64,000 nucleotides of DNA from an uncultured Smithella sp. (GTDB lineage Bacteria; Desulfobacterota; Syntrophia; Syntrophales; Smithellaceae): contig CAYXZW010000006.1 of the NCBI GenBank assembly GCA_964469905.1, forward strand, positions 23,107 through 87,106, in the 5' to 3' direction. Below are positions 383-20,266 of the stretch, piece by piece. Each line of letters starts with the position of its first letter. Position 1 is the stretch's first letter. Below the pieces are notes generated by a model. That model made no database searches, was not told where the DNA came from, and worked only from the letters and a program-made list of their open reading frames with translations. A program made the position numbers and the translations under genes.

Positions 383-384
383 CC

Positions 385-3182: not shown

Positions 3183-3192
3183 GGATCTATCC

Positions 3193-4125: not shown

Positions 4126-4157
4126 TTTTTTCTTACCGAGCAAAGGACATTAAGCGT

Positions 4158-5222
4158 ATGCAAAAGAAAACATTGTTGGTCACCGGCTCTTCCGGCCTGA
4201 TCGGTTCCGCCGTCGTCGAGAATCTTCATAAAGACTTTGACAGGGTCTATGGACTGGATAACAATATGAGGGCTGTCTTCTTCGGCCCGCAGGGCGATAC
4301 TCGTTGGAACCAAAAAAGAATGGAATCTTCCATTCCTAACTATAGCCATATCGAAGCGGATATACGGGATCGGAAGAAAATTTTGTCAATCATAGAGGAC
4401 ATTCGCCCTTCCCTGCTGGTTCATACCGCAGCGCAGCCAAGTCACGACCTGGCTGCACAAATGCCTTTTGACGATTTTGACACGAATGCCGTTGGAACTC
4501 TCAATCTTCTGGAGGCTGTGCGACATCATACACCCGATGCCGTCTTTGTTCATATGTCAACCAACAAAGTCTATGGTGATGCCCCCAACAGGATTAAACT
4601 ACGGGAAATGGAAAGCCGGTGGGATTACGATGATCCGCATTTTGCTGACGGCATTGATGAAAGTTTCACCATTGATCAATCCAAGCATTCGTTGTTCGGC
4701 GCTTCCAAGGTGGCGGCAGATATTGTTGTTCAGGAATACGGCCGTTATTTTGGCTTACGATCCTGCTGCTTGCGGGGAGGTTGCTTAACGGGGCCTTCAC
4801 ACTCGGGTGTTGAACTGCACGGGTTCCTGAGCTATCTGATAAAATGCAATCTTGAAAAGATTAAATACAGCGTTTATGGTTACAAGGGGAAACAGGTACG
4901 CGACAACATCCACTCGTATGACGTTGCCCAATTTATCCGACAATTTTATGCAAATCCGCGTATTGCTGAAGTTTACAATATCGGCGGCGGCAGGGAAAAC
5001 TCTATTTCCATAATGGAAGCATTCAGCCGCATAGAGCGCCTCTCTGGCATTCCAATGATTCATGAATATCAGGAAAAGAACCGGGAAGGCGATCATATCT
5101 GCTATATCAGCAATTTGTCCAAGATGAAGATGCATTATCCAGGTTGGACAATTACTAAGAGCCTGGATGATACCTTTTGTGAAATTGCCGATGCATGGAA
5201 GCAGCGGATCGAAAACGCTTAG
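4158..5222 (+). CDS. SDR epimerase/dehydratase, CDP-paratose 2-epimerase-like
   Basis: [27 protein letters not shown] (YxxxK region), GKQVRDNIH and YNIGGG follow the tyvelose/paratose epimerase layout as I recall it. Confidence 0.6.
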
Positions 5223-5244
5223 CGCCAGACCTGGAGTGGACGAT

Positions 5245-6186
5245 ATGCCTAATTTTTCAGAAAACTCTAAAATTTATATTGCCGGTCATCGCGGTTTAGT
5301 TGGCGCCGCCATTTTGCGTCGCTTAATCAGCAATGGATTTAACAATGTCATTGTAAGAACAAGAGCTGAACTGGATTTGACTTCCAGAAAAGATGTCTGG
5401 GATTTCTTTGACAGCGAGAAACCTGAGTATGTCATCCTTGCTGCAGCAAAAGTAGGAGGCATTGCTGCCAATATGGCTGAGCCGGTGGATTTTCTGGTGA
5501 CTAACCTGGAAATTCAGAATAATATTTTGCTGGCCTGTCATCATTTTAAGGTCAAGAAAACCATGTTTCTCGGCAGTTCGTGCATTTATCCACGGGAAGC
5601 GCGGCAACCAATGCACGAGAGTTGTTTTATGGCCGGCCCGGTTGAACCAACAAATGAATCCTATGCAATTGCCAAAATTGCCGGCATTCGCCTTGCGCAG
5701 GCACTTCGTCAGCAATATGGACTTAATGTGATTTGCCCTATTCCCTGCAATGTATATGGTCAAGGCGATCATTTTGAGTTCGAGCGCTCGCATGTTGTAT
5801 CTGCCCTGGTAAGGCGTTTTGTCGAAGCGAAGAGGAATGATTCCCCAATAGTGACTCTATGGGGTACAGGCAACGCCCGCAGGGAATTATTACATGTGGA
5901 CGATTTGGCTGATGCGTGTCTATTTTTATTACAGAATTATGATTCAGCAGAGATAATTAATGTAGGTTCCGGTTATGATCTGACCATTCGCGAACTGGCT
6001 GAAAGAATAGCAAATATTGTGGAATATAAAGGTAGTCTGGATTGGGATATAACTAAGCCCGACGGGATGCCACAAAAATTATTAGATGTTGATAGATTAA
6101 ATAAACTCGGCTGGAAGTATCAAATTGATTTAGAAACAGGCATTAGAACCGTTGTGAAAGATTTTGAATCAATCTATCATCAATAG
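5245..6186 (+). CDS. fcl: GDP-L-fucose synthase family epimerase/reductase (Fcl; possibly a ColC-type GDP-colitose synthase)
   Basis: Colinear with E. coli Fcl: IAGHRGLVG, AAAKVGGI, LGSSCIYP, EPTNESYAIAKIAG, WGTGxxRRELLHVDD, KPDGMPQKLLDV. Start set at ATG 5245 after a GGAGTGGA SD; the ORF-track start at 5167 overlaps the previous gene. Confidence 0.85.
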   Translation: MPNFSENSKIYIAGHRGLVGAAILRRLISNGFNNVIVRTRAELDLTSRKDVWDFFDSEKPEYVILAAAKVGGIAANMAEPVDFLVTNLEIQNNILLACHHFKVKKTMFLGSSCIYPREARQPMHESCFMAGPVEPTNESYAIAKIAGIRLAQALRQQYGLNVICPIPCNVYGQGDHFEFERSHVVSALVRRFVEAKRNDSPIVTLWGTGNARRELLHVDDLADACLFLLQNYDSAEIINVGSGYDLTIRELAERIANIVEYKGSLDWDITKPDGMPQKLLDVDRLNKLGWKYQIDLETGIRTVVKDFESIYHQ

Positions 6187-6191
6187 AAAGG

Positions 6192-7472
6192 ATGAGTATC
6201 CCCATGAACTTAAAATACACTTATCAGTTACGTGAACCAGTTAAGGCTTTAATGAACGAATCGTCGAGAATCAACAGTTATAAAACGCAACAATACTGGT
6301 ATCCTCTCAGCATGGCCACATATGACTTTGAAGAAATATTGGCGGCAATTGACTCGTTATGTTCTTTTCGAACAACCATGTGGGAAAAGACCATTGAATT
6401 TGAACGGCAATTCGCACATGAAGTGGGCTGTCCGGAAGCCGTCATGGTCAACAGCGGATCGTCCGCCGATCTGCTGATTGCTTTCGCCTTAATCAATCCG
6501 GCCGTCAAACTGCTGAATCCGGGCGACGAAATTCTCGTGCCGTCCGTTACATGGCCCACTCAAATCTGGTCGCCCATGATGGCCGGTCTGAAAGTGCGGT
6601 TCGTTGATACGGACACCGAGACCCTCAATATGGACTTAAAAGATCTGGAGGCAAAAATCGGTCCGCGGACGCGCGCTATTTCGCTGGTTCATCTTATGGG
6701 CAACCCCTGCGATATGGATCGTGTTCTTTCTATTTGCGAAAAATACAATCTTATTTTAATTGAAGACTGTTGTGAAGCCCTCGGCTCCGCGTTTAAGGGC
6801 AAAGCCGTTGGCACATTCGGATTAGCAGGTAGTTTTTCGTTCTTTTTTTCCCATCACATTACCACCATGGAAGGAGGCATGATTATATGCAATGATCAGC
6901 AACTTTCGGATCTTTTTCGGCTGCTGCGCGCTCATGGCTGGGCGCGCAATGCGAAATACATCAAGCCGGACCCGGCCGAAAATCTTGATCCCCGGTACAT
7001 GTTTCTGAACTTGGGATTCAATGTGAGACCATCGGAGCTACAAGCAGGTTTCGGTCTTGAACAGCTAAGAAGATTGCCGGCGTTTCACGCACAACGTGTT
7101 GCCAATGTTACATACTTTCAAAGATATTTGAATAATCATTCAGAAATAATGCAGTTAATGAAAGTATTACCGGATGCAGATTGCTCATGGTTTGCGCTTC
7201 CCATCATGCTTACACCGGAATGCCCCTTCAAGAAACAGTTGTTATTAACATATCTTGAAGAACAAGGAGTAGAGACACGTCCCATTGTAGCTGGCAACTT
7301 GACAAAACAGCCGGCATGTAAATTATACCCTGAATTACAGGAGAACAATCTGCCTGGTTCCGACGCCATCCATGATCGTGGTTTTTATCTCGGGTTACAC
7401 CCATTTGAGGCGACAAAAAATCTGGACCGGCTGGCAGATATTTTTGAACAATTTATTCGGAGTCACACATGA
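6192..7472 (+). CDS. DegT/ColD-family PMP-dependent sugar 3-dehydratase-like enzyme
   Basis: Fold-type I sugar aminotransferase layout (VNSGSSADLL, IEDCCEALGS, LLRAHGW). The segment where the Schiff-base Lys normally sits reads SFFFSHHITTMEGG (His-His), as in ColD and E1/DdhC dehydratases. Confidence 0.65.
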   Translation: MSIPMNLKYTYQLREPVKALMNESSRINSYKTQQYWYPLSMATYDFEEILAAIDSLCSFRTTMWEKTIEFERQFAHEVGCPEAVMVNSGSSADLLIAFALINPAVKLLNPGDEILVPSVTWPTQIWSPMMAGLKVRFVDTDTETLNMDLKDLEAKIGPRTRAISLVHLMGNPCDMDRVLSICEKYNLILIEDCCEALGSAFKGKAVGTFGLAGSFSFFFSHHITTMEGGMIICNDQQLSDLFRLLRAHGWARNAKYIKPDPAENLDPRYMFLNLGFNVRPSELQAGFGLEQLRRLPAFHAQRVANVTYFQRYLNNHSEIMQLMKVLPDADCSWFALPIMLTPECPFKKQLLLTYLEEQGVETRPIVAGNLTKQPACKLYPELQENNLPGSDAIHDRGFYLGLHPFEATKNLDRLADIFEQFIRSHT

Positions 7473-9445
7473 TCACACTTAAAATATTGGGTGGCCTCGG
7501 CAATCAACTCTATGCTTTTGCCTGCGGATACAGCGTCGCAAAAAGCTTGAATCAGGAATTGGTGCTGGATGTAGCGGATTATTACAACGGCTACACCCAC
7601 CCCTATGCGCTGGACGCCTTAAATATTCCGGTCTGCAGGAAACTGACCTATACACATGCCTCGGAAAAAATGCTGACACCGGATGTCATTCCGGTGCAAA
7701 TCAAAGACACTTTTGATGTCATTGCCGATTTCGCGGATGGCATCACTGATCGAGAGACTCTTCTGCAGCGAATCGGAACGCACCGGAATATATACCTCAA
7801 CGGCTACTGGGCCAGTCATGATTTTTTTTCGGGCGACGAAGACGACATCCGCCGTATATTTTCTCCCCTTCATAAATCCGGTGAATACCGTTCATTTCTG
7901 GAAACCATCCGGGGACAATGCAGCATCGCCGTTCATATGCGCAGGACTGATTTTGTCGCTCTCGGAAACGTTTGCAGCGACGATTACTACAAAGCCGCCA
8001 TCGTTTACATGCAGTCTCTTTATCCCGACGCCATGTTCTATTTTTTTTCCGATGACATCGATTACGCCAGGCAGCAATTTGGAAATCAAAGGCGCTTTCG
8101 CTATATTCAGATATTCGGAGGGATGAACGCCAACCTGGATGAATTTTTCTGCATCTCGGCCTGCAATCACAGGATTCTGCACAAAGGCAGCAGCTTCAGC
8201 GAGTGGGCAAGTTTTTTAAGCAGCAATCCCGATAAAAAGGACATTGTTTATGTCCCACGGGACGGCCAGAGCCCTAAGGGGTTTGTCTGCCTGAATGATC
8301 GCCAAATCGCCGATCTCAAGGAAAACTATCAAACGACCCCCCGATTCACCATTCAGAACAACATCGAAGCCAGAACCAGCATCGACCGGATGCTGACAAA
8401 GGGGCAATACGAGACGATTCTGGACGTTATCGCCGACATCAGCATGGACGCATATTCCGTCTCTCGCGCAGATTGCATTTATTTTCTGGCAGACAAAGCC
8501 GTCGCCTACGCACAAACGGACCAACTACTTGCTGCCGAGCAGTGCCTGCACAAGCAGGCCCAGTATTCCCGTGATGACGAGAATTTTCACGCCAATTATT
8601 ATGTCGTATTAAAAGCGTTGGGCAAAAGCCGGGCCGCGTCTATCCACGCGGCCAGATGCGCCAATCTCACCCAAAGCGAAGCGTTGCGCATGGAGCTCAA
8701 TAAGTCTTTTACTGACGACTCTCCGGAATCACGAATATACGGGGTTATCCGTAACACACCACTGAAGCATTTTATCGTGACGCCGAACACGCCATGGTTC
8801 TATTACATCAAAACTCCCCAGTCCATCGCCGCCTGGCTGGCCCGGATGGGCCATACGGTATCTTATATTTTTCCGCCGTCCGTAAAAAACATCGATCCCG
8901 CTCCCTCCCCGGAACAAGTCGTTGATGCATGCCTTAAGGCAAAATCAGGCTGCGATACGCTTTACTCCTATGGTCTGGATTTATTTCCCTCCATCATCAA
9001 TAAAACAGCAACAGGTCAGTTGATACCTTATGTTGAACCATTAATAAAGCATTTAAGCCGCAGTGGCGCCGGAGAGCCGGTGGTCGTGTTCCGCCACCCT
9101 CATGCGGTTGGTGATAATCGGGAAAGAAAATATGCAAGATTTCTTTACTGGGATTTTCAGGATGACGCAGACAGCGAACGCACATTAGTCAACGCCTGGT
9201 CCGAGGACATGCGCGAATACATGTGCAGGCAAGCGGATCGCGTCATTGTGACGAATCGCACACTCTTTGAAAAAACACGGGCAGTCTGGCAATTGAATAA
9301 CGTCTATTTATTCGAGCATCAAGACGACGTTGATGCGCAACCATGCCGTTACCTGGAGGAACGGATCCCCTATTCGTCCAACTGCCTGGCCGACGATCGA
9401 ACCATTGAATTGGCCGCCTTTATCCTCGGGCTGTCCAATGAATAG
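7469..9445 (+). CDS. GT11 (alpha-1,2-fucosyltransferase family) glycosyltransferase fused to a ~370-aa C-terminal extension
   Basis: N-terminal LGGLGNQLYAFACGY and HMRRTDF are the GT11 signatures. The C-terminal part has helical repeat-like sequence and a GT-B half-domain-like stretch (HFIVTPNTPWFYY...AAWLARMGHTVSYI, ADRVIVTN). ATGA overlap with the upstream gene. Confidence 0.7.
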   Translation: MITLKILGGLGNQLYAFACGYSVAKSLNQELVLDVADYYNGYTHPYALDALNIPVCRKLTYTHASEKMLTPDVIPVQIKDTFDVIADFADGITDRETLLQRIGTHRNIYLNGYWASHDFFSGDEDDIRRIFSPLHKSGEYRSFLETIRGQCSIAVHMRRTDFVALGNVCSDDYYKAAIVYMQSLYPDAMFYFFSDDIDYARQQFGNQRRFRYIQIFGGMNANLDEFFCISACNHRILHKGSSFSEWASFLSSNPDKKDIVYVPRDGQSPKGFVCLNDRQIADLKENYQTTPRFTIQNNIEARTSIDRMLTKGQYETILDVIADISMDAYSVSRADCIYFLADKAVAYAQTDQLLAAEQCLHKQAQYSRDDENFHANYYVVLKALGKSRAASIHAARCANLTQSEALRMELNKSFTDDSPESRIYGVIRNTPLKHFIVTPNTPWFYYIKTPQSIAAWLARMGHTVSYIFPPSVKNIDPAPSPEQVVDACLKAKSGCDTLYSYGLDLFPSIINKTATGQLIPYVEPLIKHLSRSGAGEPVVVFRHPHAVGDNRERKYARFLYWDFQDDADSERTLVNAWSEDMREYMCRQADRVIVTNRTLFEKTRAVWQLNNVYLFEHQDDVDAQPCRYLEERIPYSSNCLADDRTIELAAFILGLSNE

Positions 9446-9581: not shown

Positions 9582-12500
9582 ATGCCGACAAATTCATATT
9601 TATCGACACACAGCCAATACCGGGAAGATCTGGTTATCGACACACTTTTTAAGTACAAATCCAATGGTTTTTATGTTGATATCGGCGCCAATGATCCAGA
9701 CGTCTTGAGCAACACCAAATTGTTTTATAATCGGGGATGGAACGGCATCAACATAGAACCGGAGCCGAATCTTCATGCAAAGCTCTGCTGCCATAGAGGA
9801 AGAGATATTAACCTGAGAGTTGGCGTTGGCCCCGAGCCGGGAATAATGACATTTTATCGGATGTCTGCCGACACGCTTTCATCATTTAATAAGCAAGCCG
9901 CTCTTCAAGCAGGCAAGCTTTACGGCGGAACTTTGATTGGAGAGGAACCTACACCAGTTGCAAAGCTGGCTGATATCCTGGCGGATAACCTCCGCGGAAG
10001 TTCGATTGATTTTATGTCCGTTGATGCGGAGGGATATGACTTGGCGGTCTTAAAAAGCAACGATTGGTCCCGCTTCCGCCCATCCGTCATTATTGTCGAA
10101 ATCAATGTGGGTGGGAATGATATTATCGCATTTTTACAAAAACAGGATTACATTTTAATATTTGACAATTATACCAACGGTATTTTTGTTGCCAAGGAAT
10201 TCTTCAATACGATTGATGATAATATTAGAGAGGACCTGCGCAAACTGGAAAATAGTCAAGGTCTGCGAACAGTACTCCCGCGGACTGGGGAAAAAAACGA
10301 ACTTTATATTAATCATATATACGGCCATCAGTCCCCGAGCATTATCAAAGCATTCAAACGTGGAAACGTCACCATCCTCTGCACACATCTTCCGATCGAA
10401 GGATGCGATCATTACGTCTATACGAATTCCTTCAGCTACTGTGGCAAAATGCCTGGTTTGAACATTCTGCTCATGCTGGAGCCATCGGTCGTCCTTCCGG
10501 GCGAGTATAACGATCATGTCTGGCAGCATTTCGATCATGTCTTTGGATTATTCGACGTGCTTATGGATCGCAGCAACAAATTTCATAAAATATTTTTTCC
10601 GCGAACCGATATACCGGGCGCAAATCCGGTCACTGATAACCAAAACAGCCGCGAAAATCTCTATCCGCTATCAGGACGCAAGCATGCCATATGCATGATC
10701 GGCAGTAACAGAAGTTCCCATGTACCCTATGAACTATACTCCAAACGTGTTGAAGCTGCCCGCTGGTTCGCGGAGCATTCCAAAATACCTTTTGACGTTT
10801 ATGGGCCACCATTTGCTCTGCCCAATTACCGGGGACCTTGTCCGGTTTCTCAAAAGTTGGCAAAAATTAAAGAATATCGATTTAATCTTTGTTTTGAAAA
10901 TACCAATGATCCGATATTGGCCGCGGGCTACGTCACCGAAAAAATTCTCGACTGCATGGAATCGCGGACCATTCCAATTTACCTGGGTGCCCCCAACATC
11001 GAGCAATACGTTCCTGAGGACTGTTTCATTGATTTGCGCAAATTCGCCGACTATGCTGATCTGGAAAAATATCTGCGCAAAATGAGTAATCAGGATTATC
11101 ATCGTTATATAAACGCAATCGACAAATGGGTTACAAGCGGCAATCTTATGAAATTTGCTGAAGCGCCGTTATATAACGATCTGGCGAAACTGTGTGCGGA
11201 GTCCTCGAGACTTAATATCGAGAATCTGTTTGCATCAGATCACGTATGGGAAGTATGCAAAGCCGAACCGCCGACAGCCCGCCAATGGCAGTTTGTTCAG
11301 AAGCCCGCGTTGTGGACTTGGAAACATCTGTCAAAAGCCGAGGCTCCGATTATCGAAAACGGAAAACTGATCAGCCGGCAGCATTTAACTGTTTGCCGGA
11401 AATCTGATAAAGTCAATACATCCGAGGGAAAGTGTTTCCTGATCGGAAAGAAACCATCTATCAAGGTATTAGCTGCCGGCACCAAATTCTTTTCTGGCAA
11501 TGCACGGCAGGGGTATGACTATGGATGGTGGAATCATTTTGATGCGCTTAAACGCTTTGAAAATATAGAAATGCATTTTTTTGATTATGCTACGGAGGCA
11601 CAGCAGCGAGGGATTGCGGGAATGTCCGAATGCCTACAGGAAGTCATCTGTAAAGAAAAACCCGACATACTCTTTTATTGTCCTCTCAACAGTCCGGTTG
11701 GTATTCTGCCTGATAGCCTAAAAAGCATAACCGGTTTAACGGATACTCAAACTGTCATTTGGATGAATAATGATCATCAACTTTTAAACGAGGACGCAGA
11801 AAGCTGGGCACACTGCTCTGATTACATCATTACACTTTCACCTGAATCTGCAGGGTATTTTGCAGCGGCAGGTTTCGGCTCCAAAGTCATTAAAAGCCAA
11901 TGGGGTTTCAATCCTTATACATATAACACATCAAACGCAAGACACCGGGAAATAAGCTTTTGCGGCGCTGCCAAAGGCATCCGTTCAGAGATCCTGGAAA
12001 AAATAAAACAGAGCGGTTTGTCTGTTGATGTTTTCGGATCAGGTTGGCACGAGGACTCTTTCATTCCCTTTTACGATATGGTAAATATTTTTTGTCAATC
12101 CAGGATTAACCTGCACCTCAGTGATACGCCTGATCTAATGAACCATCAGATCAGAAGAAGAACTTTCGAAGTGCCGGGTTGCCATGGATTTTTACTCACT
12201 CATCCTGCAGACGGCTTGGAAGAGTATTATAAACCCGGCAAGGAAATCGTCGTTGCTTCCTCATCGGAGGAACTGATTGAGAAAGCAAAGTATTATCTTG
12301 CCCATGAACGGGAACGGGAAATAATCGCGCAAAGCGGATATGAGCGAACACTTGCCGAGCATACATGGTCCCGGCGCTTCATTGATATTTTCAAACATAT
12401 CGGTTTCACAGCTATCCTCAGATCCATCTCCGGAATGGTCGGCGCCCCGTATTTTGTTGAGTCTTCCAAAACTTCTCTCTTAACCACAACGGAAAATGAA

Positions 12501-15500
12501 GCGGTAACGTCCATAGACTCTCAAAACGAAGTCATTGAAACAACCATCAATGTCATGGCATATAACCAACTGGAATACACCAAAATATGCGTGGAAAGCA
12601 TTCTACATTATACTAAAGGCCCCTTCGAGTTACTGCTGACTGACAATGGCTCAACAGACGGCACCAGTGAATATTTTAATGCTGTAAAGAACTTTCATCC
12701 GCGCACCCGGATCATTCGAAACTTCCACAACCGCATTGCGGAAACGGCGGTAAATCATTCCACTTGTGCGGCACGTGGAAAATATTATGTGTTTGTCAGC
12801 AACGATACAATGGTACACGAAGGTTGGCTGGAAAACCTTATCCGCCACATGGAATCTGCTCCGGATATCGGCTGGGTGGGACCGCGTTCCAATAGTATTA
12901 GCGGGCCTCAGTTTGAGTCAGCTGTGTACGATTCCACAGAGACATTCCAGGCTTTTGCCGCCGAACGGGCCAATCTGCATCGGGGCGAAAATTTCCCCGT
13001 TGATCGCTTAGCAGGAATGCTCGTCATTTCCAAGAAGCAGTTTTTTGAACGAATCGGAGGAGCGGATCCTTACCTGCCGGCAAATGGCAGAGATGGAGGT
13101 TATGGTTTCAGCGATGATGATATATCACTACGGTTTATTATAGCCGGCTATAAGTTACTCGTTGCCAATGATGTTTACATCCAGCACTTCGGCAGTGTAA
13201 GTGCAAAACATGATCGTCCTGATCTCTTTGGCTCCCCCCAAAATCTCAATAAAGAAAAATATCTACGTAAAATCAGGGATAATAACCGCATCACTATGGC
13301 AACAGACGGCAATATGATTATCAAACCTTACAAGCTCGATGATATCATCCCGGTGGAAGAACGAATGGTCATCAGAACCCCCCGTATATGTTTTGTTGAA
13401 ACAGAAGACAATGTTACAATAGCACCTGACACCGAAAGCCTTTATGTCGACGTCGCCCAAATACATAATGGACAAATTTTCGGGGACAGGGGTAAAACGA
13501 TCCAATCCCTAATCCTGCAACTCCTGGAAGACAACTCCTATGATTTTCTTGTTCTGATCAATTCGCGCCTTGCCCCCTCTCCGGAAATCGTCTCTGCACT
13601 GACGGAATCGGCCCTGTGTCACCCGGATGTGGGAATTATGGTTCCAACGGGCAACTATGCACCGGCAACACATCAACCCGCAGAAACAAAGAAAGGTATC
13701 GAGCTGATTGATTATGCTGATTTGTCTACATGTACTATAAACCTCAAAATTACCAGGCCTTTTCGACCAGGTCTCGCCAATTGTGAAAATGACAATGAAT
13801 TATTATGGTTTTTGCAGAGACGTGTACGGGGTGAAGGTTATTTTATCGCGAAAGCAAATAATGTTGAAATCAATTACAGCAGGCCGATACTTGATCATCC
13901 ATGCGATGCTCAAGTTCTTCCGGAACAACTGGTAAAAGAAAGAAAATATACGGAAGCTGCAGCCATTTACAGAAATGATCTTGAAAAAGATCCTACCTTT
14001 GCCGAAGCCCACTATCAGCTTGCCCTTATTGCCAGAGAACAGCAGCGGACAGAAGAAGCCATCTTGCACGCCGAGCAGGCACTTGGGGCAGATCCGCATC
14101 ACATAGAGTCTTTGATTTTCCTGTCGGGCTTATTTATGGCGCAAAACGACTGGAAGCGTGCGAAATCGTTCATCGGCCAGGCTAACTTCAAGCAGCCGGG
14201 TAACCCGGAAGTAAAGAAAATAGTCGAGCAATATGAGCAGAAAATGGGGGAAAAAGCTGTTCTTCCAAAACAAAAAGAAGGTGCAACAATACCTTGCCTG
14301 ACAAACAGTGAATTTATTAAAGGCAGGACATCCATTATTGTTACGGCATCTTCTAAACACATACGTGAATGCATAACTGCCATTAAAAAACATACACCGG
14401 AACCTTATGAACTGATAGTGATTGACAACTTCATAACTGAGGAATTGAAAAAGAAGCTGCAGAAAACTGTTAAAGAAATCAGCAGTCCCTGCAAAATTCT
14501 GGAGCACTCTCCCAAAGCCCCCTTATTGCAGTCCGTCAACCTTTGCATTAACGAATCAACCGGCGAATTTATCGTTCTGATTATGGATGATACTATAGTT
14601 TCAGCAGGCTGGCTCACCGGAATGCTGACATGTCTTAAATTCGCACCTGAAGCGGGTATCATCGGCCCCATGACTAACACTGGAAGCGGTCTCCAGCGGG
14701 TTGCCGACGACTTGTGTCAATCCGTTAATTATGTCGATAAATGCGCGGCTACATTTAAAGAGCGATTTCATCACCGCCGGGTGCCATACCGGAATATTGC
14801 CGGACCATGCCTGTTATTCAAGAGAACACTCGTGGAAAAAATCGGATTACTGGATGAACGATTCGCAGCCGGAGAGTTTGAAGTTGAAGATTATTGCTGG
14901 AGAGCAGAATTGGACGGCTGCATAAATTATATAGCCGGTGATGTTTTTGTCTATAATTACGGAAAAAAGGGATTGCCGGGTGACAGAACAATCATTGATA
15001 CAAAATGGACATTCAGTATGGACAGCCTCGAAGGCAGGAAACTGGCTGTTCTGAAATCCCGGGAACTGGCTGCTGTCATGTATCAAAAAGGCTTCATGGA
15101 TCAGGCAGTCGAAGCACTGATCAACTGCATCAAACTGATCCCCGATGCCAAAGAAATATATTATGACCTGACCCTTATGTTTATTGAATCCAGAAGATTT
15201 TCCGAGGCCCGGGAAGTTGTCGGAACCATGCCGGAAGCGGTCAGAAATGATGTAAAGGGTTTAGGATATGCGGGTTACGCCATGGAAGGTTTAGGTCAGG
15301 ATGATGAAGCGGCTGCCTGTGCGGACAGAATATTGTCTCAGAATGAAAAATACCCGGCAGCTCTGAATCTGAAGGGTGTTTTAGCGTATAAAAAAGACGA
15401 TAGAGAAAAGGCTGCGTACTATTTCCAGAAGGCCATTGACGCTGATCCGGGGTATGGCGAAGCCCATATCAACCTTGGTGTTCTGTACCGGGGATTAAAG

Positions 15501-17096
15501 CAGAAGGAGGCAGCTCTGGTTCATTTGAAAAAAGGTTTTATTCTGTCTCCATTCATTCCGGACGTGAATTCGATTTATTATTCCGTAATGTCTTCTGCAG
15601 GCATGTTCAGCGAGGCGGAAGACGACTTTTGTGAAGCTTTAAAATTATATCCCTGCAATAAAAATCTTGTTTTTTTATGTATTGATATCTTTCTTCAGCA
15701 GTCTAAGTATGATGCGGCTTTGCATAAGATAGAAGATACCCTTGATGTATTTGGTTTGGATGAAGGTTTACTGAACGCAGCCATTGATATCCGGGAAAAA
15801 ACAGGTCCCCTGCAGATCGACAAAGCAAACAAGAAAGGCACACTGTCTCTTTGCATGATTGTCAAAAATGAAGAAAAGTATCTTATTCCCTGCTTAAAAA
15901 GCGTTCGTGATATTGTGGATGAAATCATCATTGTGGACACGGGATCAACCGACAAAACAGTTGCCATTGCCCGTATCTTTGGGGCCAAATTGTTTGAATT
16001 TTCGTGGACCGGCGATTTCTCGGCAGCACGCAATCATTCATTAGAGCAAGCGACAGGCCAATGGATTTTAGTTCTTGATGGCGACGAGGTTATTTCACCG
16101 CGAGACCATAAAAAGATCAAAGAAATTATTTCCCGGAAATCACCATTGCATTGCGCTTATTCCATTGCCACACGAAATTATTTATCAACAGTCGGCGGTA
16201 TGGGATGGGTGAAAAACAGCGGAGAATATCCTGAAGAAGCGGGCATCGGACGGGTAGAAAGCGTAAAAGTGCGGCTTTTCACCAGAAATAAAAATATCTT
16301 TTTTAGTAAACCGGTTCACGAAATATTGGAATATTCTCTCAAAAAAGAAAAGGTTAGCATTCTTCCCTGCGAGATCATCGTTCACCATTACGGCAAATTA
16401 GACATTCAGAGAGACCAGAAAAAAGGTGAAGATTACTATCTGCTGGGGAAAATCAAATATGAAACCGATCCGACCCATATGAAATATATAATAGAATTGG
16501 CCAAACAGGCGCACCTGCTCGGCAAAAATGAAGAAGCCGCCGAATTGTTTGAAAAACTCCTCTCGCTCATAGCAGCCAATCCGTATTCACCGAGCTTTGA
16601 GGAAATTTACCAGATGACTCATGGCAAACCGATGTTGGAAATATATACAACACTTGCAGCAGTCTATCTGGGGCTGCACCGCTTTGATGATGCCCTGAAC
16701 GCAGCCCGCAAAATAGCGGCCGACAGCAACAGGCGCGAAGCAAATATTTTTGTTTACGCGCATTGCGAGATCATCGCGGGATCGCTTACCAATGCATTTC
16801 GTGAACTGGAAGAATCTCTCCGGATATCGCCGGACTACTTGCCCAATTTTATTATGATGGCCGTTGTTTTCTGCCTGGAAGGCAATAAGGAAAAAACCGG
16901 GGAATATATCCTGTTGCTTCAGCAAAAACGGGTTGTGATAACTACGATTATTAACACAATTGCCCAGGAATTGATTGCTTACGGGAAAAAAGATGGTGCC
17001 CTGCTCATCATCAATGCGATGATTGAATACAAGATATACGATCAGGAGACAATAAGGTTGGCCGGTGTTGTACAAAATGACATGGGCAGTGCGTAA
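9582..17096 (+). CDS. 2504-aa multidomain methyltransferase / multi-glycosyltransferase with TPR blocks
   Basis: Single uninterrupted ORF with an AGGAG SD upstream of ATG 9582. Domain motifs are listed in the sub-features below. Confidence 0.85.
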   Translation: MPTNSYLSTHSQYREDLVIDTLFKYKSNGFYVDIGANDPDVLSNTKLFYNRGWNGINIEPEPNLHAKLCCHRGRDINLRVGVGPEPGIMTFYRMSADTLSSFNKQAALQAGKLYGGTLIGEEPTPVAKLADILADNLRGSSIDFMSVDAEGYDLAVLKSNDWSRFRPSVIIVEINVGGNDIIAFLQKQDYILIFDNYTNGIFVAKEFFNTIDDNIREDLRKLENSQGLRTVLPRTGEKNELYINHIYGHQSPSIIKAFKRGNVTILCTHLPIEGCDHYVYTNSFSYCGKMPGLNILLMLEPSVVLPGEYNDHVWQHFDHVFGLFDVLMDRSNKFHKIFFPRTDIPGANPVTDNQNSRENLYPLSGRKHAICMIGSNRSSHVPYELYSKRVEAARWFAEHSKIPFDVYGPPFALPNYRGPCPVSQKLAKIKEYRFNLCFENTNDPILAAGYVTEKILDCMESRTIPIYLGAPNIEQYVPEDCFIDLRKFADYADLEKYLRKMSNQDYHRYINAIDKWVTSGNLMKFAEAPLYNDLAKLCAESSRLNIENLFASDHVWEVCKAEPPTARQWQFVQKPALWTWKHLSKAEAPIIENGKLISRQHLTVCRKSDKVNTSEGKCFLIGKKPSIKVLAAGTKFFSGNARQGYDYGWWNHFDALKRFENIEMHFFDYATEAQQRGIAGMSECLQEVICKEKPDILFYCPLNSPVGILPDSLKSITGLTDTQTVIWMNNDHQLLNEDAESWAHCSDYIITLSPESAGYFAAAGFGSKVIKSQWGFNPYTYNTSNARHREISFCGAAKGIRSEILEKIKQSGLSVDVFGSGWHEDSFIPFYDMVNIFCQSRINLHLSDTPDLMNHQIRRRTFEVPGCHGFLLTHPADGLEEYYKPGKEIVVASSSEELIEKAKYYLAHEREREIIAQSGYERTLAEHTWSRRFIDIFKHIGFTAILRSISGMVGAPYFVESSKTSLLTTTENEAVTSIDSQNEVIETTINVMAYNQLEYTKICVESILHYTKGPFELLLTDNGSTDGTSEYFNAVKNFHPRTRIIRNFHNRIAETAVNHSTCAARGKYYVFVSNDTMVHEGWLENLIRHMESAPDIGWVGPRSNSISGPQFESAVYDSTETFQAFAAERANLHRGENFPVDRLAGMLVISKKQFFERIGGADPYLPANGRDGGYGFSDDDISLRFIIAGYKLLVANDVYIQHFGSVSAKHDRPDLFGSPQNLNKEKYLRKIRDNNRITMATDGNMIIKPYKLDDIIPVEERMVIRTPRICFVETEDNVTIAPDTESLYVDVAQIHNGQIFGDRGKTIQSLILQLLEDNSYDFLVLINSRLAPSPEIVSALTESALCHPDVGIMVPTGNYAPATHQPAETKKGIELIDYADLSTCTINLKITRPFRPGLANCENDNELLWFLQRRVRGEGYFIAKANNVEINYSRPILDHPCDAQVLPEQLVKERKYTEAAAIYRNDLEKDPTFAEAHYQLALIAREQQRTEEAILHAEQALGADPHHIESLIFLSGLFMAQNDWKRAKSFIGQANFKQPGNPEVKKIVEQYEQKMGEKAVLPKQKEGATIPCLTNSEFIKGRTSIIVTASSKHIRECITAIKKHTPEPYELIVIDNFITEELKKKLQKTVKEISSPCKILEHSPKAPLLQSVNLCINESTGEFIVLIMDDTIVSAGWLTGMLTCLKFAPEAGIIGPMTNTGSGLQRVADDLCQSVNYVDKCAATFKERFHHRRVPYRNIAGPCLLFKRTLVEKIGLLDERFAAGEFEVEDYCWRAELDGCINYIAGDVFVYNYGKKGLPGDRTIIDTKWTFSMDSLEGRKLAVLKSRELAAVMYQKGFMDQAVEALINCIKLIPDAKEIYYDLTLMFIESRRFSEAREVVGTMPEAVRNDVKGLGYAGYAMEGLGQDDEAAACADRILSQNEKYPAALNLKGVLAYKKDDREKAAYYFQKAIDADPGYGEAHINLGVLYRGLKQKEAALVHLKKGFILSPFIPDVNSIYYSVMSSAGMFSEAEDDFCEALKLYPCNKNLVFLCIDIFLQQSKYDAALHKIEDTLDVFGLDEGLLNAAIDIREKTGPLQIDKANKKGTLSLCMIVKNEEKYLIPCLKSVRDIVDEIIIVDTGSTDKTVAIARIFGAKLFEFSWTGDFSAARNHSLEQATGQWILVLDGDEVISPRDHKKIKEIISRKSPLHCAYSIATRNYLSTVGGMGWVKNSGEYPEEAGIGRVESVKVRLFTRNKNIFFSKPVHEILEYSLKKEKVSILPCEIIVHHYGKLDIQRDQKKGEDYYLLGKIKYETDPTHMKYIIELAKQAHLLGKNEEAAELFEKLLSLIAANPYSPSFEEIYQMTHGKPMLEIYTTLAAVYLGLHRFDDALNAARKIAADSNRREANIFVYAHCEIIAGSLTNAFRELEESLRISPDYLPNFIMMAVVFCLEGNKEKTGEYILLLQQKRVVITTIINTIAQELIAYGKKDGALLIINAMIEYKIYDQETIRLAGVVQNDMGSA
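9609..10196 (+). other. domain: FkbM-type methyltransferase (aa ~10-205 of giant ORF)
   Basis: FYVDIGANDPD, INIEPEP, IDFMSVDAEGYD. Confidence 0.7.
10449..11141 (+). other. domain: GT10-like (alpha-1,3-fucosyltransferase family) core (aa ~290-520)
   Basis: KEYRFNLCFENTNDPILAAGYVTEKILDCMESRTIPIYLG matches the GT10 FxLxFENS...Y.TEK motif. Confidence 0.6.
11439..12401 (+). other. domain: CgeB/DUF3880-type GT-B glycosyltransferase (aa ~620-940)
   Basis: ISFCGAA...RINLHLS...RRRTFEVPGCHGFLLT...KPGKEIVV...AQSGYERTLAEHTW. Confidence 0.55.
12534..13211 (+). other. domain: GT2 glycosyltransferase A (aa ~985-1210)
   Basis: VMAYNQLEYT...ELLLTDNGSTDGT...VFVSNDTMVHEGWL. Confidence 0.7.
13374..13886 (+). 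other. domain: degenerate GT2-like segment (aa ~1265-1435)
   Basis: ICFVETEDN...DFLVLINSRLAPSPEIV has a GT2-like layout but no clear DxD motif. Confidence 0.3.
13914..14216 (+). other. TPR block 1 (aa ~1445-1545)
   Basis: YTEAAAIYRNDLEKDPTFAEAHYQLALIA...AILHAEQALGADPHH. Confidence 0.6.
14328..14966 (+). other. domain: GT2 glycosyltransferase B (aa ~1583-1795)
   Basis: TSIIVTASS...YELIVIDN...FIVLIMDDTIVSAGWL. Confidence 0.65.
15039..15806 (+). other. TPR block 2 (aa ~1820-2075)
   Basis: Repeated A/Y/L helical pairs, e.g. AAYYFQKAIDADPGYGEAHINLGVLY. Confidence 0.65.
15837..16406 (+). other. domain: GT2 glycosyltransferase C (aa ~2086-2275)
   Basis: LSLCMIVKNEEKYL...EIIIVDTGSTDKT...WILVLDGDEV. 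Confidence 0.75.
16434..17021 (+). other. TPR block 3 (aa ~2285-2480)
   Basis: Helical repeat sequence after GT2-C, e.g. EAAELFEKLLSL, ALNAARKIAA. Confidence 0.5.
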
Positions 17097-17190: not shown

Positions 17191-17241
17191 AAAAAAGAAA
17201 ACCCACCGGGTCAGGTGATCCGGCGGGTTTCTCTTGTTTTT
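17191..17241. terminator. bidirectional rho-independent terminator between the glycan island and flaF
   Basis: AAAAAAGAAA - ACCCACCGG - 10-nt loop - CCGGCGGGT - TTCTCTTGTTTTT. The stem pairs 8 of 9 positions and has A/T-rich runs on both sides. Confidence 0.65.
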
Positions 17242-18103: not shown

Positions 18104-18448
18104 TCAGATCTTTACAGTCAGAATTGCACCAGTTTGTACATTTTCGGCCGCCGCTCTGACCGTTTCCGTAGCGTCGCTTTTCGATTTATTGTCTAAGCTT
18201 GTATTTTGCAACACCTGATCAGCTCCTGAGCGCGTGACCTCTGTTTCGCCGATACTTACTTTTTTGATGAGATCCTGTCTCTGGTACGTTGCTATGGGGA
18301 AAAAGGGCGGGTCATAGGTATCTACTATATCCGACTGCCCTGCTCTTACGGAAACATCCTCTCTGATATCGCCGCCTTCCTTACTCCCTCGCTCAGGGCG
18401 AAACGCATTCTGCAGTCCCTGATATAGATTAATATTATTGACATTCAT
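18104..18448 (-). CDS. hypothetical 114-aa protein between flagellin and flbT
   Basis: ORF in the operon position. No motif I can assign: it lacks the FlaG C-terminal motif and is not FliW-, FliS- or FliD-like. Contains DPPFFPIATYQRQDLI. Confidence 0.4.
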   Translation of the reverse strand: MNVNNINLYQGLQNAFRPERGSKEGGDIREDVSVRAGQSDIVDTYDPPFFPIATYQRQDLIKKVSIGETEVTRSGADQVLQNTSLDNKSKSDATETVRAAAENVQTGAILTVKI

Positions 18449-18472
18449 AATGCTACCCCATTTATTTCAGAT

Positions 18473-18493
18473 GGGGAGGAATTCTTCCTCCCC
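18473..18493 (-). terminator. stem-loop just downstream of flagellin (partial terminator/attenuator)
   Basis: GGGGAGGAA-TTC-TTCCTCCCC is a perfect 9-bp stem. A second 6-bp hairpin, CCCCAT/ATGGGG, is adjacent. There is no strong U-tract, so read-through into downstream genes is plausible. Confidence 0.45.
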
Positions 18494-18519
18494 ATCCGGG
18501 CATTTAGCCTATGGTTTTA

Positions 18520-19875
18520 TTACTGGAACAATCTCAGAACCGACTGGGCTGCCTGTGCCGAGAGACTCAGAGCAGTGGTGGCCAGTGACTGACGGGTCTG
18601 CAACATCAGCATGTTGGCTCCTTCCTCATTGGTATCGGCCAGTGTCAGTTTATCCGAACCTGCATTCAGTGTGTTAATCATGTTCGTCGAAAATTGCTGT
18701 CGAACAGTAACAATACTCAGGTTGTTGGATAGTTTGGACGACTCCGTCCGTAAAGCGGTTGCCGCAGTATCCAGCTTGGTTACATCAGCATCAATATCGC
18801 CGCCGATGACCCAAGTTGCGGCAGTAATGCCCCGCCCTGTTGTTGATGCATCAAAGCCCGCAACGGTCAGATTAGTGCCTTCGAATTTAACTATCAGATT
18901 ATCGTTATTCAGAAGGTTCTTGCCTTTGTACCCGGAATCTAACGCCAACCTATCCATCTGATAACGCAAGGAGTTAAACTGCGATTCCAGTGATACTTTT
19001 TCACGGGACGCAACGGTTATAGTTACCGTTGTGCCGGCAAAGGCTGTACTACCAATATTGGCAGTTGTTATACTTGCTTGCAGCAGAGTAGCAATTGCCG
19101 TGTTTCCACCGGAATTAACAGTGGTGGTGCTATACCCGGTACTGACGCCTGCCGTATAAGTAAATACTGTCGAGTCCAGGCCCACTGTGAATTGCCTTAC
19201 TTCCGCAGCACCAACGGTCAAACCTGTGCCCACATTCGTCGACACATTGGTGATAGCTATGGTAACAGCATCGAATGCGATTGAATTACTATCACTCCGC
19301 GCAATCGTTATTGTGGAGGCGCCTGTTGCAGTATAGGTTCCTTCGGTCAAAGCAGCAATCAATGCTTGAAGACCAGCTATATCTTGAAATTTCCCACCCC
19401 CAATACTATAAGTGCCGCCGGATGAAAAAGCAAAAACATGTGTATTCCCACTTGCTGTAATTGTTACTTTATCACCGGCAGTCAGAGTAGCGACAGTGCC
19501 TATCGAAAGACTCAGTGTCTGATAAGTGGAAATACTTCCTACATTTTCCGTTTCAGTCGTGCTGCTTGTAGCCAGGGCTGATTGCGCGATACCTTTGGCC
19601 TGCTCAATCATTGTACTGAGTGCTGTAATGCCCTTGTCGGCGGCGGTAATAGTCTGAACGGCCTGACCCATCGCATCCTTCAAACCGTCGATTGTTGCTG
19701 CGCGCGCGTTCAATGACGCGGCTGCAAAATACGATACCGGGTTGTCAATTGCTGTGTTGACTTTTTTGCCTGTAGAAAGGCGGTTTTGTGTGCGGTCTAA
19801 AAGTTCTACTGTGCTTTGCAGAGATAAAAGGTTGTTTCTCATTCCTGAGGTTAAGCTGATATCATTAATAGCCAT
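18520..19875 (-). CDS. fliC: flagellin
   Basis: Conserved N-terminus (LTSGMRNNLLSLQ...RLSTGKKVNTAIDNPVSY) and C-terminus (LQTRQSLATTALSLSAQAAQSVLRLFQ). Thr/Ser/Gly/Ala-rich central domain. AAAGGAG SD. Confidence 0.95.
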   Translation of the reverse strand: MAINDISLTSGMRNNLLSLQSTVELLDRTQNRLSTGKKVNTAIDNPVSYFAAASLNARAATIDGLKDAMGQAVQTITAADKGITALSTMIEQAKGIAQSALATSSTTETENVGSISTYQTLSLSIGTVATLTAGDKVTITASGNTHVFAFSSGGTYSIGGGKFQDIAGLQALIAALTEGTYTATGASTITIARSDSNSIAFDAVTIAITNVSTNVGTGLTVGAAEVRQFTVGLDSTVFTYTAGVSTGYSTTTVNSGGNTAIATLLQASITTANIGSTAFAGTTVTITVASREKVSLESQFNSLRYQMDRLALDSGYKGKNLLNNDNLIVKFEGTNLTVAGFDASTTGRGITAATWVIGGDIDADVTKLDTAATALRTESSKLSNNLSIVTVRQQFSTNMINTLNAGSDKLTLADTNEEGANMLMLQTRQSLATTALSLSAQAAQSVLRLFQ

Positions 19876-20048: not shown

Positions 20049-20085
20049 GTTGCGAGGGGCTTTTTTTGAAAATAAATAGAGGAAG

Positions 20086-20264: not shown

Positions 20265-20266
20265 CA

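Follow-up and report, generated by a model that had tools for sequence, protein, structure and literature searches.

The locus analysed here raises the question of what a single protein of 2504 residues, combining methyltransferase, glycosyltransferase (GT) and TPR modules, does beside a set of flagellin genes. Flagellin glycosylation usually relies on several separate enzymes of ordinary size, and little is understood of how the initiating enzyme selects flagellin or of how the enzymes that extend a chain locate it. The gene lies in a stretch of 64,000 nucleotides from an uncultured Smithella sp. (the window), to which all coordinates refer.

An uninterrupted reading frame with colinear homologues

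9582..17096, + strand: giant ORF, 2504-aa soluble multi-modular methyltransferase/glycosyltransferase/TPR protein

The frame begins with an ATG preceded by a good ribosome-binding site (AGGAG, 8 nt 5' of the start codon) and runs through all 2504 residues with no internal stop. An independent Logan assembly of SRR13723396 encodes the identical 2504-aa protein, and homologues of 2238-3077 aa with an unchanged order of modules are encoded in ~20 independent assemblies; given the identical copy and these homologues, a frameshift artefact is very unlikely. The single uninterrupted frame described in an earlier sequence-only reading is thus borne out, the database search for the same domain order that it proposed returned colinear homologues from ~20 other assemblies, and each of the motif strings that it quoted is present in the translation. 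Hydropathy predicts no membrane segment in the protein (maximum KD19 of 1.47).

Among species-representative genomes the only relative of the giant protein is found in a Nitrospirae MAG (53% identity). One homologue carries the label Nitrospirota and another Desulfobacteraceae, and the only annotation that such proteins now bear in these lineages is "FkbM family methyltransferase". FlhA of the same DNA reaches no more than 63-65% identity with MAGs labelled Deltaproteobacteria and ~52-55% with Nitrospirae MAGs. The GT10 module occurs in all 46 related proteins and the third GT2 domain (GT2c) in 37 of the 46, mostly together with TPR blocks 2 and 3. Many homologues have two FkbM-like domains, the first of which is missing from the window copy. 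Modular fission, fusion and duplication occur among the relatives: at the L088 locus GT2c and TPR block 3 form a stand-alone gene of 418 aa adjoining flaF, the L003 locus holds a second copy of GT2b-TPR2-GT2c-TPR3 as a gene of its own (926 aa), and in distant relatives the middle modules are swapped.

The N-terminal FkbM, GT10 and CgeB-type modules

The ORF matches 21 Pfam families, with scores above the curated cut-offs for FkbM, GT10, the CgeB-type GT-B domain and GT2 (three domains). TPR families are recovered too, and the whole agrees with the inventory and the module order originally read from the letters. The FkbM, GT10 and CgeB-type modules lead the chain.

9678..10154, + strand: FkbM-type SAM methyltransferase domain (residues 33-191; Methyltransf_21 PF05050, E=1e-24; TIGR01444)
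10227..11261, + strand: GT10-like module (residues 216-560; Glyco_transf_10 PF00852 match at 366-518, E=1e-18)
11262..12476, + strand: CgeB-type GT-B module (residues 561-965; Glyco_trans_1_2 PF13524 match at 801-936, E=1e-34)

The FkbM domain exceeds the cut-off of both models (87.7 bits for PF05050 and 40.7 bits for TIGR01444), and its motifs VDIGANDP (the SAM-binding glycine-rich motif) and VDAEGYD are conserved in the homologues. The GT10 module scores 67.9 bits against PF00852 (cut-off of 23.9) and aligns with the H. pylori α-1,3-fucosyltransferase 2nzw (E=6e-11) across the nucleotide-sugar motif, which reads FENT...YVTEK, conforms to the family pattern FxL/VxFENS/TxxxxYxTEK and is conserved in 46 sequences. 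The upstream genes for a 4,6-dehydratase and an Fcl-like enzyme hint at GDP-β-L-fucose as a possible donor for this module, which would then form an α-1,3/4 linkage.

The CgeB-type module gave no match in a sequence search against the PDB. It was also considered as a route to a link with the flagellin glycosyltransferase FlmG and set aside, the database search with residues 561-965 having retrieved nothing beyond CgeB-like GTs that stand alone and partial members of the giant family itself. The stand-alone proteins (~350 aa) align over 78% of the module, and two of their loci are ordinary Wzx/Wzz/Bac_transf polysaccharide clusters. Because the nearest stand-alone relatives of this module and of GT2a and GT2b lie in polysaccharide clusters, these three modules by themselves give no pointer to flagellin.

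GT2 domains a and b flank a GT-A-like domain without DxD

12477..13256, + strand: GT2 domain a (GT2a; residues 966-1225; PF00535/PF13641)
13257..13901, + strand: GT-A-like domain without DxD (residues 1226-1440; AF2 α/β fold)
14292..15011, + strand: GT2 domain b (GT2b; residues 1571-1810; PF00535, E=1.6e-11)

In Pfam the three Glycos_transf_2 stretches of the protein (~988-1202, ~1591-1773 and 2089-2187) reach a combined E of 2e-55. GT2a retains the conserved motifs DNGSTDGT, N-D (1075) and FSDDD (1176-1180), is modelled with a pLDDT of ~90 and matches GalT1 (5hea) and chondroitin synthase in the PDB. GT2b is a paralogue of GT2a (E=1.7e-49 in hhalign) and matches 6p61; its motifs are more weakly conserved and the DxD aspartates are only partly kept. 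Neither domain matches GmaR or SunS in the PDB, where both hit only generic glycan GT2s.

Residues 1226-1440, which the sequence-only reading had called a degenerate GT2-like segment, do have a predicted fold that is weakly GT-A-like, but they show no Pfam GT2 match or any other Pfam match and the DxD is absent, its position being occupied by N-S-R here and by D-x-R in the consensus. Profile-profile comparison with the three GT2 modules was not significant (best with GT2a, P=0.004, probability of 8%), and a model of this domain alone hits only GT-A-fold/nucleotide-sugar-transferase proteins, weakly (E of ~1e-3, TM of 0.36-0.46). The domain is probably non-catalytic or non-canonical. Since it lacks DxD and may not be catalytic, five intact-looking GT domains are counted, against the five to six catalytic modules first proposed.

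In an AF2 model of residues 966-1570, which contains GT2a and the domain without DxD, the tandem-GT-A polymerases PmHS2 (Pasteurella) and K4CP (E. coli) align over ~560-600 columns, and residues 966-1440 match their tandem GT-A fold. These two enzymes and WbdA with the chain terminator WbdD, the latter pair a multi-GT/methyltransferase system for ABC-dependent O-polysaccharide, resemble the giant protein in placing several GT domains in one soluble polypeptide, and in such multi-module polymerases a methyltransferase is associated with completion of the glycan. The protein might accordingly be read as a cytoplasmic polymerase and terminator for a lipid-carried surface polysaccharide (O-antigen, capsule or flagellar sheath glycan), its proximity to flagellin reflecting co-regulation only. 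Fusions of several GTs with a methyltransferase are a hallmark of ABC-dependent O-polysaccharide systems (PMC11231755), capsule polymerases containing TPR are known (PMC5974469), and both the tandem fold and the Wzx/Wzz clusters around the CgeB-type relatives fit such a role. The neighbouring genes and the C-terminal modules, described below, weigh against it.

Sugar genes upstream of the giant ORF

14..7472, + strand: sugar-nucleotide tailoring genes, co-directional with the giant ORF
7469..9445, + strand: 658-aa protein with a GT11 (α-1,2-fucosyltransferase family) domain, directly upstream of the giant ORF

The dedicated sugar-tailoring operon that had been noticed 5' of the ORF was found on the + strand and comprises at least 13 genes, including that for GT11. 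Within the window it encodes a C-methyltransferase (cut by the window edge), a radical SAM/SPASM protein, two short-chain epimerase/reductases, an FkbM methyltransferase, an NDP-hexose 4,6-dehydratase, an Fcl-like epimerase/reductase and an RfbH/ColD-like PLP enzyme (3-dehydrase), and it extends 5' of the window with genes for a HAD protein, another dehydratase and a B12-radical SAM protein. At the P0001 and P0004 loci the GT11 protein recurs in this position with its length unchanged. A methylated deoxyhexose, as suggested earlier for the product, fits the 4,6-dehydratase, the relative of GDP-fucose synthase, the 3-dehydrase, the C- and FkbM-methyltransferases and GT11.

The C-terminal GT2 domain is related to GmaR

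13902..14291, + strand: TPR block 1 (residues 1441-1570; TPR_19, TPR_2 and TPR_16 at 1450-1550; TPR families in all over ~1447-1560; helical repeats in the model)
15012..15806, + strand: TPR block 2 (residues 1811-2075; TPR_17 at 1947-1979; TPR families in all over ~1827-1990; NCBIfam MamA/GltE at ~1827-1994)
15807..16601, + strand: GT2 domain c (GT2c), GmaR/SunS-like protein-glycosylating type (residues 2076-2340; PF00535 at 2089-2187; TIGR04195, SunS family)
16602..17093, + strand: TPR-like block 3 (residues 2341-2504; weak TPR_14/TPR_2, E=3e-4, at ~2353-2430)

In the PDB, residues 2087-2288 of GT2c match the GT domain of GmaR, the flagellin O-GlcNAc transferase of Listeria monocytogenes (22ao_A, E=4.9e-28), followed by the peptide S-glycosyltransferase SunS (7msp, E=7.5e-16), the alignment with SunS extending into its helical domain. 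The conserved motifs are VDTGSTD, DGDE, HE and HHYG, the first two being conserved in at least 95% of homologues. Of the three TPR blocks proposed earlier, the first two are recovered by TPR families (block 2 with 52-66% identity in close homologues), whereas the third is recovered weakly; it accompanies GT2c in homologues, the stand-alone L088 gene included. A separate TPR protein of 400 aa is encoded at 20753-21955.

GmaR consists of a GT2 domain followed by TPR, glycosylates flagellin and is bifunctional (PMC9638930), and the combination of GT2 with TPR is already used to predict flagellin GTs (PMC13317340). The C-terminal unit shares with GmaR the motifs VDTGSTD and DxDE and a helical TPR-like block after the GT2 domain, and like GmaR the giant gene is linked to flagellin. 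GmaR differs in being a protein of 637 aa with one GT (GT2, TPR, linker and antirepressor), whereas here the corresponding unit makes up the C-terminal sixth of 2504 aa, and the window lacks a MogR context. The TPR/antirepressor region of GmaR has no detectable similarity to the TPR block 3 region, and at E<=0.01 no GmaR chain other than that of the GT domain (204 aa) was matched; the block that follows GT2c comprises only 164 aa, and nothing corresponding to the GmaR antirepressor/MogR arrangement was found. GmaR is nevertheless the closest characterised relative and displaces Caulobacter FlmG, with which the sequence-only reading had drawn its parallel and which is compared here by description only. 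The TPR domain of FlmG binds flagellin (PMC7591256), and by analogy with FlmG and GmaR (PMC7591256, PMC9638930) we infer that the TPR blocks may serve as flagellin tethers.

The bifunctionality of GmaR (PMC9638930) might also mean that the giant protein is mainly a regulator or scaffold, which would add a single sugar and control flagellin expression or secretion with FlaF/FlbT while several of its modules have decayed. The lost DxD of one GT-A-like domain, the partly conserved motifs of GT2b and the missing first FkbM-like domain of the window copy are in line with decay. However, comparison of 24-46 homologues shows conservation above 95% for the catalytic motifs of FkbM, GT10, GT2a and GT2c, a dedicated sugar operon lies upstream and similarity to the GmaR antirepressor domain is lacking, so that we regard such a role as very improbable.

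The giant gene converges on flaF-flbT and flagellin

17196..17236, no strand assigned: GC-rich hairpin with an A-run on one side and a T-run on the other (z = -5.3 for one strand, -5.0 for the opposite one)
17268-17717, - strand: flaF (PF07309, E=1e-30), convergent with the giant ORF
17698-18096, - strand: flbT (PF07378, E=1e-41), convergent with the giant ORF
18104..18448, - strand: 114-aa protein of no family, between flbT and flagellin
18520..19875, - strand: 451-aa flagellin, the proposed acceptor (Flagellin_N, Flagellin_C, NF009330)

The stop codons of the giant ORF (17096) and of flaF (17268) are separated by 171 nt containing the hairpin, probably an intrinsic terminator that serves the giant ORF and flaF from opposite directions. 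The earlier description of a gap of about 170 nt is upheld, and strong folding on both strands fits the shared terminator that it proposed. We compared eight loci (the window, P0001, P0004, P0013, P0027, P0031, P0041 and P0046; 33-64% identity) whose far flanks differ. FlaF-FlbT is convergent with the giant gene or its unfused modules, and no more than ~5 kb away, in all eight; flagellin follows FlaF-FlbT in seven, the gene at that position in P0046 having no Pfam match. A gene in the position of the 114-aa protein is present in 7/8 loci, and a YPPFFP-type motif is common to the six compared (the window and five relatives). The proposed link to flagellin is strengthened by the eight convergent loci together with the homology of GT2c to GmaR, though some of the synteny between these related uncultured lineages may reflect common descent and not selection.

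The same neighbourhoods bear on the surface-polysaccharide alternative. PmHS2, K4CP and WbdA produce lipid-linked or free glycans and have export genes adjacent, whereas the neighbours of the giant gene are flagellar. The genes scanned, from the 64-kb window, from the 4.8 kb that precede it and from the surroundings of the gene at seven sister loci, include none for export or a lipid carrier, with no Wzx/Wzy/Wzz, Wzm/Wzt or an ABC transporter, Kps, a WecA/WbaP-type initiator, an initiating phosphoglycosyltransferase or an oligosaccharyltransferase. With GT2c specifically akin to protein and peptide glycosyltransferases, and with the tight convergent link to flaF-flbT persisting as other neighbours change, we consider a surface polysaccharide unlikely as the product. 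A Maf/MptE-like (DUF115) domain is likewise absent from the 21 Pfam families of the ORF and from its neighbours.

Because the gene adjoins the flagellin genes, the sugar chain is most likely built on the flagellar filament protein. The argument from a Ser/Thr-rich centre of flagellin that had been offered for this is weak, as Ser and Thr make up ~25% along the whole length, the termini are as rich as the centre, and the flagellins of three sister loci are short (267-285 aa). The enlarged hook and junction proteins were also put forward as targets, and the acceptors could in principle be FlgL-like, FlgK, FlgE or general proteins in place of or besides flagellin, with the TPR blocks recruiting different ones. 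There are indeed three separate TPR blocks, the hook-junction (FlgL-like) protein is unusually large (932 aa here and 1057 aa in the P0004 locus) and FlgE has 609 aa. Nothing points specifically to the FlgE/FlgK/FlgL targets, however: FlgL and FlgK genes are non-adjacent in most sister loci, where FlaF-FlbT, and flagellin in 7/8, are the constant partners. We know of no characterised flagellin-island GT that modifies hook protein, and judge such acceptors to be quite unlikely.

Proposed function

We propose, with a probability of roughly 0.65, that the giant ORF encodes a soluble cytoplasmic enzyme that builds an O-linked oligosaccharide on flagellin before its export by the flagellar apparatus; most likely it belongs to a known kind of flagellin-glycosylation system, of which it would be an unusually fused form. 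What follows on the acceptor, on the sequence of steps, on the sugars used and on the TPR blocks is our inference. The GmaR-homologous unit GT2c-TPR3 would set the first sugar on Ser/Thr of flagellin, and GT2a, GT2b, the CgeB-type GT-B module, GT10 and the separate GT11 protein would lengthen the chain with sugars from the upstream operon, which, to judge from its genes, may be fucose/colitose-type hexoses, either 6-deoxy or 3,6-dideoxy. The N-terminal FkbM domain would O-methylate a sugar, possibly capping the chain. The TPR blocks may arrange the modules or keep hold of flagellin that is unfolded or free of chaperone, and residues 1226-1440 would probably act as a structural or binding module. 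Counted against this proposal is that flagellin bearing an oligosaccharide of at least five residues must traverse the narrow export channel; export of oligosaccharide-bearing flagellin has a precedent in the a-type glycan of Pseudomonas aeruginosa.

A stricter form, which we find doubtful, is a colinear assembly line in which the O-glycan on TPR-tethered flagellin would be handed from module to module and the module order would dictate the glycan sequence. If true, it would be a carbohydrate counterpart of PKS/NRPS logic on a protein substrate, and module fission, fusion and duplication of the kind seen at L088, at L003 and in distant relatives would reprogram the flagellar glycan.

Relation to known flagellin-glycosylation systems

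A literature search on fused giant flagellin GTs or on flagellin glycosylation in Nitrospirae found nothing specific. With the sugar operon and a single soluble chain, an entire flagellin glycan pathway could be reconstituted in compact form, and the relatives with unfused, duplicated or swapped modules form a comparative series for assigning module roles. Flagellin glycosylation islands would also be extended to uncultured lineages labelled Nitrospirota and Deltaproteobacteria/Desulfobacterota.

The type B flagellin glycan of Clostridioides difficile is made by sequential cytoplasmic GT2s including a GT2-methyltransferase fusion, and this methyltransferase-fused GT makes methylated deoxyhexose (rhamnose) units (PMC5207246), resembling the product suggested here. 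The enzymes of that locus (GT1, GT2-methyltransferase and GT3) are separate proteins of ordinary size, its methyltransferase belongs to PF08241 whereas that of the giant protein is FkbM-type, and TPR goes unmentioned in PMC5207246.

FlmG likewise combines TPR and GT in a cytoplasmic flagellin glycosyltransferase with a context of FlaF/FlbT-type regulation. Its TPR is N-terminal and its GT-B domain C-terminal, and it adds one monosaccharide (pseudaminic or legionaminic acid, from CMP-Pse/CMP-Leg), whereas in the giant protein the order and number of domains differ, the GT-B modules are GT10 and CgeB-type, and the window contains no Pse/Leg (nonulosonic-acid) pathway genes. NeuB is encoded in the P0027 and P0004 loci.

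A single reading frame of 2504 codons

The giant ORF (9582..17096, +) starts at an ATG with AGGAG 8 nt before it and runs for 2504 codons without an internal stop, at a G+C content similar to that of the adjoining genes. The identical 2504-aa product is present in the independent Logan assembly of run SRR13723396, and the sugar operon 5' of it was found again in SRR13723393. A search of 5.8 billion proteins returned 46 with at least the GT10 module in common, 22 of which, from different assemblies, have their modules in the order of the giant ORF across 85-100% of the query (44-64% identity). The uninterrupted ORF claimed in the sequence-only reading is thus borne out, and the recurrence of the product in an independent assembly together with the 22 colinear homologues makes an assembly or frameshift artefact very unlikely. 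No 19-residue stretch of the product reaches the hydrophobicity of a membrane helix (largest value 1.47), so the product is predicted to be soluble and cytoplasmic.

In a Pfam scan each catalytic family exceeds its own curated cut-off, and the FkbM, GT10, CgeB-type, three GT2 and TPR families named in that reading were recovered, as were all its quoted motif strings in the translation.

Modules of the giant ORF (the three Glycos_transf_2 stretches have a combined Pfam E = 2e-55)
aa 33-191: FkbM methyltransferase (Pfam E = 1e-24)
aa 366-518: Glyco_transf_10, GT10 (Pfam E = 1e-18)
aa 801-936: Glyco_trans_1_2, CgeB type (Pfam E = 1e-34)
about aa 988-1202: Glycos_transf_2, GT2a
about aa 1447-1560: TPR block 1 (TPR families)
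about aa 1591-1773: Glycos_transf_2, GT2b
about aa 1827-1990: TPR block 2 (TPR families)
aa 2089-2187: Glycos_transf_2, GT2c
about aa 2353-2430: TPR block 3 (weak, E = 3e-4)

When every module was aligned to the orthologous segments of homologues, the motifs of FkbM (VDIGANDP, VDAEGYD), GT10 (FENT...YVTEK), GT2a (DNGSTDGT, N-D, FSDDD) and GT2c (VDTGSTD, DGDE, HE, HHYG) proved at least 95% conserved, those of GT2b being less strictly so. The GT10 motif region aligns to H. pylori alpha-1,3-fucosyltransferase (2nzw, E = 6e-11). By this count the chain appears to hold five intact glycosyltransferase domains and one methyltransferase. Conservation of the catalytic motifs, like the dedicated sugar operon, argues against a protein that is largely regulatory or decayed.

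A GT-A-like segment lacking the DxD motif

The segment at aa 1226-1440, previously described as degenerate GT2-like, has no Pfam family match and no significant profile-profile match to GT2a. AlphaFold2 applied to aa 966-1570 (pLDDT 83.8, pTM 0.83) gives a model in which the segment forms an alpha/beta domain, and the best PDB fold matches of this model are PmHS2 and K4CP, polymerases with two GT-A domains, over about 560-600 columns. Modelled by itself (pLDDT 76), the segment matches solely GT-A or nucleotide-sugar-transferase folds (EXT1/2, IspD, GalNAc-Ts, LH3, ArnC), weakly (E about 1e-3, TM 0.36-0.46). The expected DxD position reads N-S-R in the giant ORF and D-x-R in the family consensus. 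Given these fold matches and the N-S-R, GT-A-like but degenerate is a fair description of the segment. The PmHS2/K4CP match, together with the general look of fusions of several glycosyltransferases with a methyltransferase, would also suit a polymerase or terminator of lipid-linked polysaccharide.

The last module resembles flagellin glycosyltransferases

In a PDB sequence search with aa 2076-2504 the top match is the glycosyltransferase domain of Listeria GmaR (22ao, E = 4.9e-28), with about half of the residues identical across the first 100, followed by the peptide S-glycosyltransferases SunS and ThuS. GmaR is a characterised flagellin O-GlcNAc transferase in which a GT2 precedes TPRs (PMC9638930). 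By homology the last module belongs to these GT2 protein glycosyltransferases, although GmaR has an antirepressor part that the giant ORF does not. Neither GT2a nor GT2b matched GmaR or SunS in the PDB; their matches are GT2s of the generic, glycan-extending kind (GalT1, chondroitin and heparosan synthases, 6p61), and stand-alone relatives of the CgeB-type module (~350 aa) lie in ordinary Wzx/Wzz/Bac_transf polysaccharide clusters. We therefore propose that GT2c-TPR3 is the initiating, protein-directed transferase and that the remaining modules are sugar-to-sugar extenders recruited from polysaccharide glycosyltransferase families.

The upstream sugar operon

The predicted sugar-tailoring operon was found by annotation on the same strand 5' of the giant ORF, extending farther upstream to a HAD hydrolase, another dehydratase and a B12-radical SAM enzyme.

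Genes of the upstream operon
4158-7472 (+): three consecutive genes, for an NDP-hexose 4,6-dehydratase, an Fcl-like enzyme closely related to GDP-L-fucose synthase (418 bits, under the 500-bit equivalog cut-off) and an RfbH/ColD-like PLP enzyme (303 bits)
7469-9445 (+): 658-aa GT11-family protein
(+): C-methyltransferase
(+): radical SAM/SPASM enzyme
(+): two short epimerase/reductases
(+): second FkbM methyltransferase

On established pathway logic, a dehydratase, a ColD/RfbH-type 3-dehydrase and an Fcl/ColC-type reductase together indicate GDP-linked 6-deoxy or 3,6-dideoxy hexoses, and GT10 and GT11 are families that use GDP-fucose-type donors. From this gene content the operon products would be GDP-linked 6-deoxy or 3,6-dideoxy hexoses. 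The 4158-7472 trio corresponds to what synthesis of a 3,6-dideoxyhexose (colitose-like) donor would be expected to need, with the C-methyltransferase and radical SAM genes nearby. In the GT11-family protein, exactly 658 aa long in three loci, the match is confined to residues 94-253, and the C-terminal 400 or so residues have no Pfam family. In some sister loci (a relative's contig L005, 1700-5660; the locus of homologue P0004) the giant gene is preceded by genes for NeuB and a TPP-dependent enzyme, so that flagellar glycans there may also contain nonulosonic acid or draw on another set of sugars.

Flagellar neighbourhood and proposed mechanism

Downstream of and convergent with the giant ORF lie flaF, flbT, a 114-aa gene and a 451-aa flagellin, followed by a divergent TPR protein, an FlgL-like protein, flgK, flgN, flgM and flgI; the remaining window is flagellar regulon (FlgE, FliK, FliF, FliI, FlhA, FlhF, FliR, sigma-54 activator). 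The 171 nt between the stop codons of the giant ORF and flaF hold a hairpin, GC-rich and bordered by an A-run and a T-run, whose stability greatly exceeds that of shuffled sequence on either strand (z = -5.3 and -5.0), making the bidirectional terminator postulated earlier plausible.

Further genes of the flagellar region
18104-18448 (-): 114-aa protein between flbT and flagellin, no known family
20753-21955 (+): 400-aa all-TPR protein, divergent from flagellin
22221-25019 (-): 932-aa FlgL-position protein, Flagellin_N domain, weak BNR/Asp-box match
33149-34309 (-): 386-aa protein with FliK hook-length-control C-terminal domain
50240-52057 (-): 605-aa protein, separate, with the same FliK domain

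We compared the loci of seven homologues (33-64% identity to the giant ORF). In all seven the giant gene, or the separate genes corresponding to it, lie upstream of, and convergent with, FlaF-FlbT, with one or a few genes at most between them, while far-side genes vary. In six of them FlaF-FlbT is followed by the small gene and flagellin; the exception, a relative's contig L088, has there a single 472-aa gene without a Pfam match. A flippase, Wzy, Wzz, ABC exporter, initiating phosphoglycosyltransferase or oligosaccharyltransferase was found neither in these loci nor among the window genes scanned. This lack of carrier and export genes and the GmaR link of GT2c both argue against the lipid-linked polymerase or terminator.

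The best-supported reading, to which we give a probability of roughly two in three, is one multi-modular enzyme for stepwise cytoplasmic O-glycan assembly on flagellin: GT2c-TPR3 would start the glycan, the other glycosyltransferase modules would lengthen it sugar by sugar in the cytoplasm, and the FkbM domain would methylate it. We found nothing in favour of other acceptors, for instance the large FlgL-like protein. Such a system would work in the manner of known flagellin glycosylation islands, and its individual steps have precedents. In C. difficile, GT2 enzymes acting in sequence, one of which is a methyltransferase fusion, build the type B flagellin glycan (PMC5207246), flagellin is bound by the TPR of FlmG (PMC7591256), and in Clostridium islands, one of them predicted to add a 3,6-dideoxyhexose, GT2+TPR proteins serve as predictors of flagellin glycosyltransferases (PMC13317340). 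The unusual feature is how much is fused: one chain unites six glycosyltransferase-type domains, five of them with intact motifs, with a methyltransferase and three TPR blocks. Full-text searches of openly accessible literature returned no description of such a protein. The fusion would have wider significance should its modules prove to work in colinear order on flagellin that is tethered.

A gene of 114-278 aa occupies the flbT-flagellin position in seven of the eight loci examined. Six compared sequences (the window and five relatives) have in common a YPPFFP, YPPWFP or YPPFP motif, and four of the six small proteins a V/I-x-V/L-K/N-V/I hydrophobic C-terminus. All-TPR proteins of 396-402 aa adjoin flagellin or the giant gene in the loci of homologues P0004, P0013, P0041 and P0031, and the 400-aa protein might be another flagellin-handling factor. 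The 932-aa FlgL-position protein is about three times the usual size; its P0004 counterpart (1057 aa) adjoins CsrA.

Modules as evolutionary units

Dozens of uncultured bacteria conserve the fusion; they bear the labels Nitrospirota, Deltaproteobacteria or Desulfobacteraceae, and their proteins are annotated in databases only as "FkbM family methyltransferase". Its modules behave as evolutionary units. FkbM is absent from about half of the homologues, whereas many have two tandem FkbM-like domains against one in the window; eight stop after TPR1, and in distant members the middle is different, GT10 and the C-terminal TPR2-GT2c-TPR3 block being all that is retained. On L088 (7313-17546) five genes encode a 219-aa GT10, GT10+TPR, GT2, GT2-GT2b-TPR2 and a 418-aa GT2c-TPR3, the last adjoining flaF (61% identity). 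Another relative's contig, L003, carries a second copy of the GT2b-TPR2-GT2c-TPR3 block as a 926-aa gene (18193-20973).
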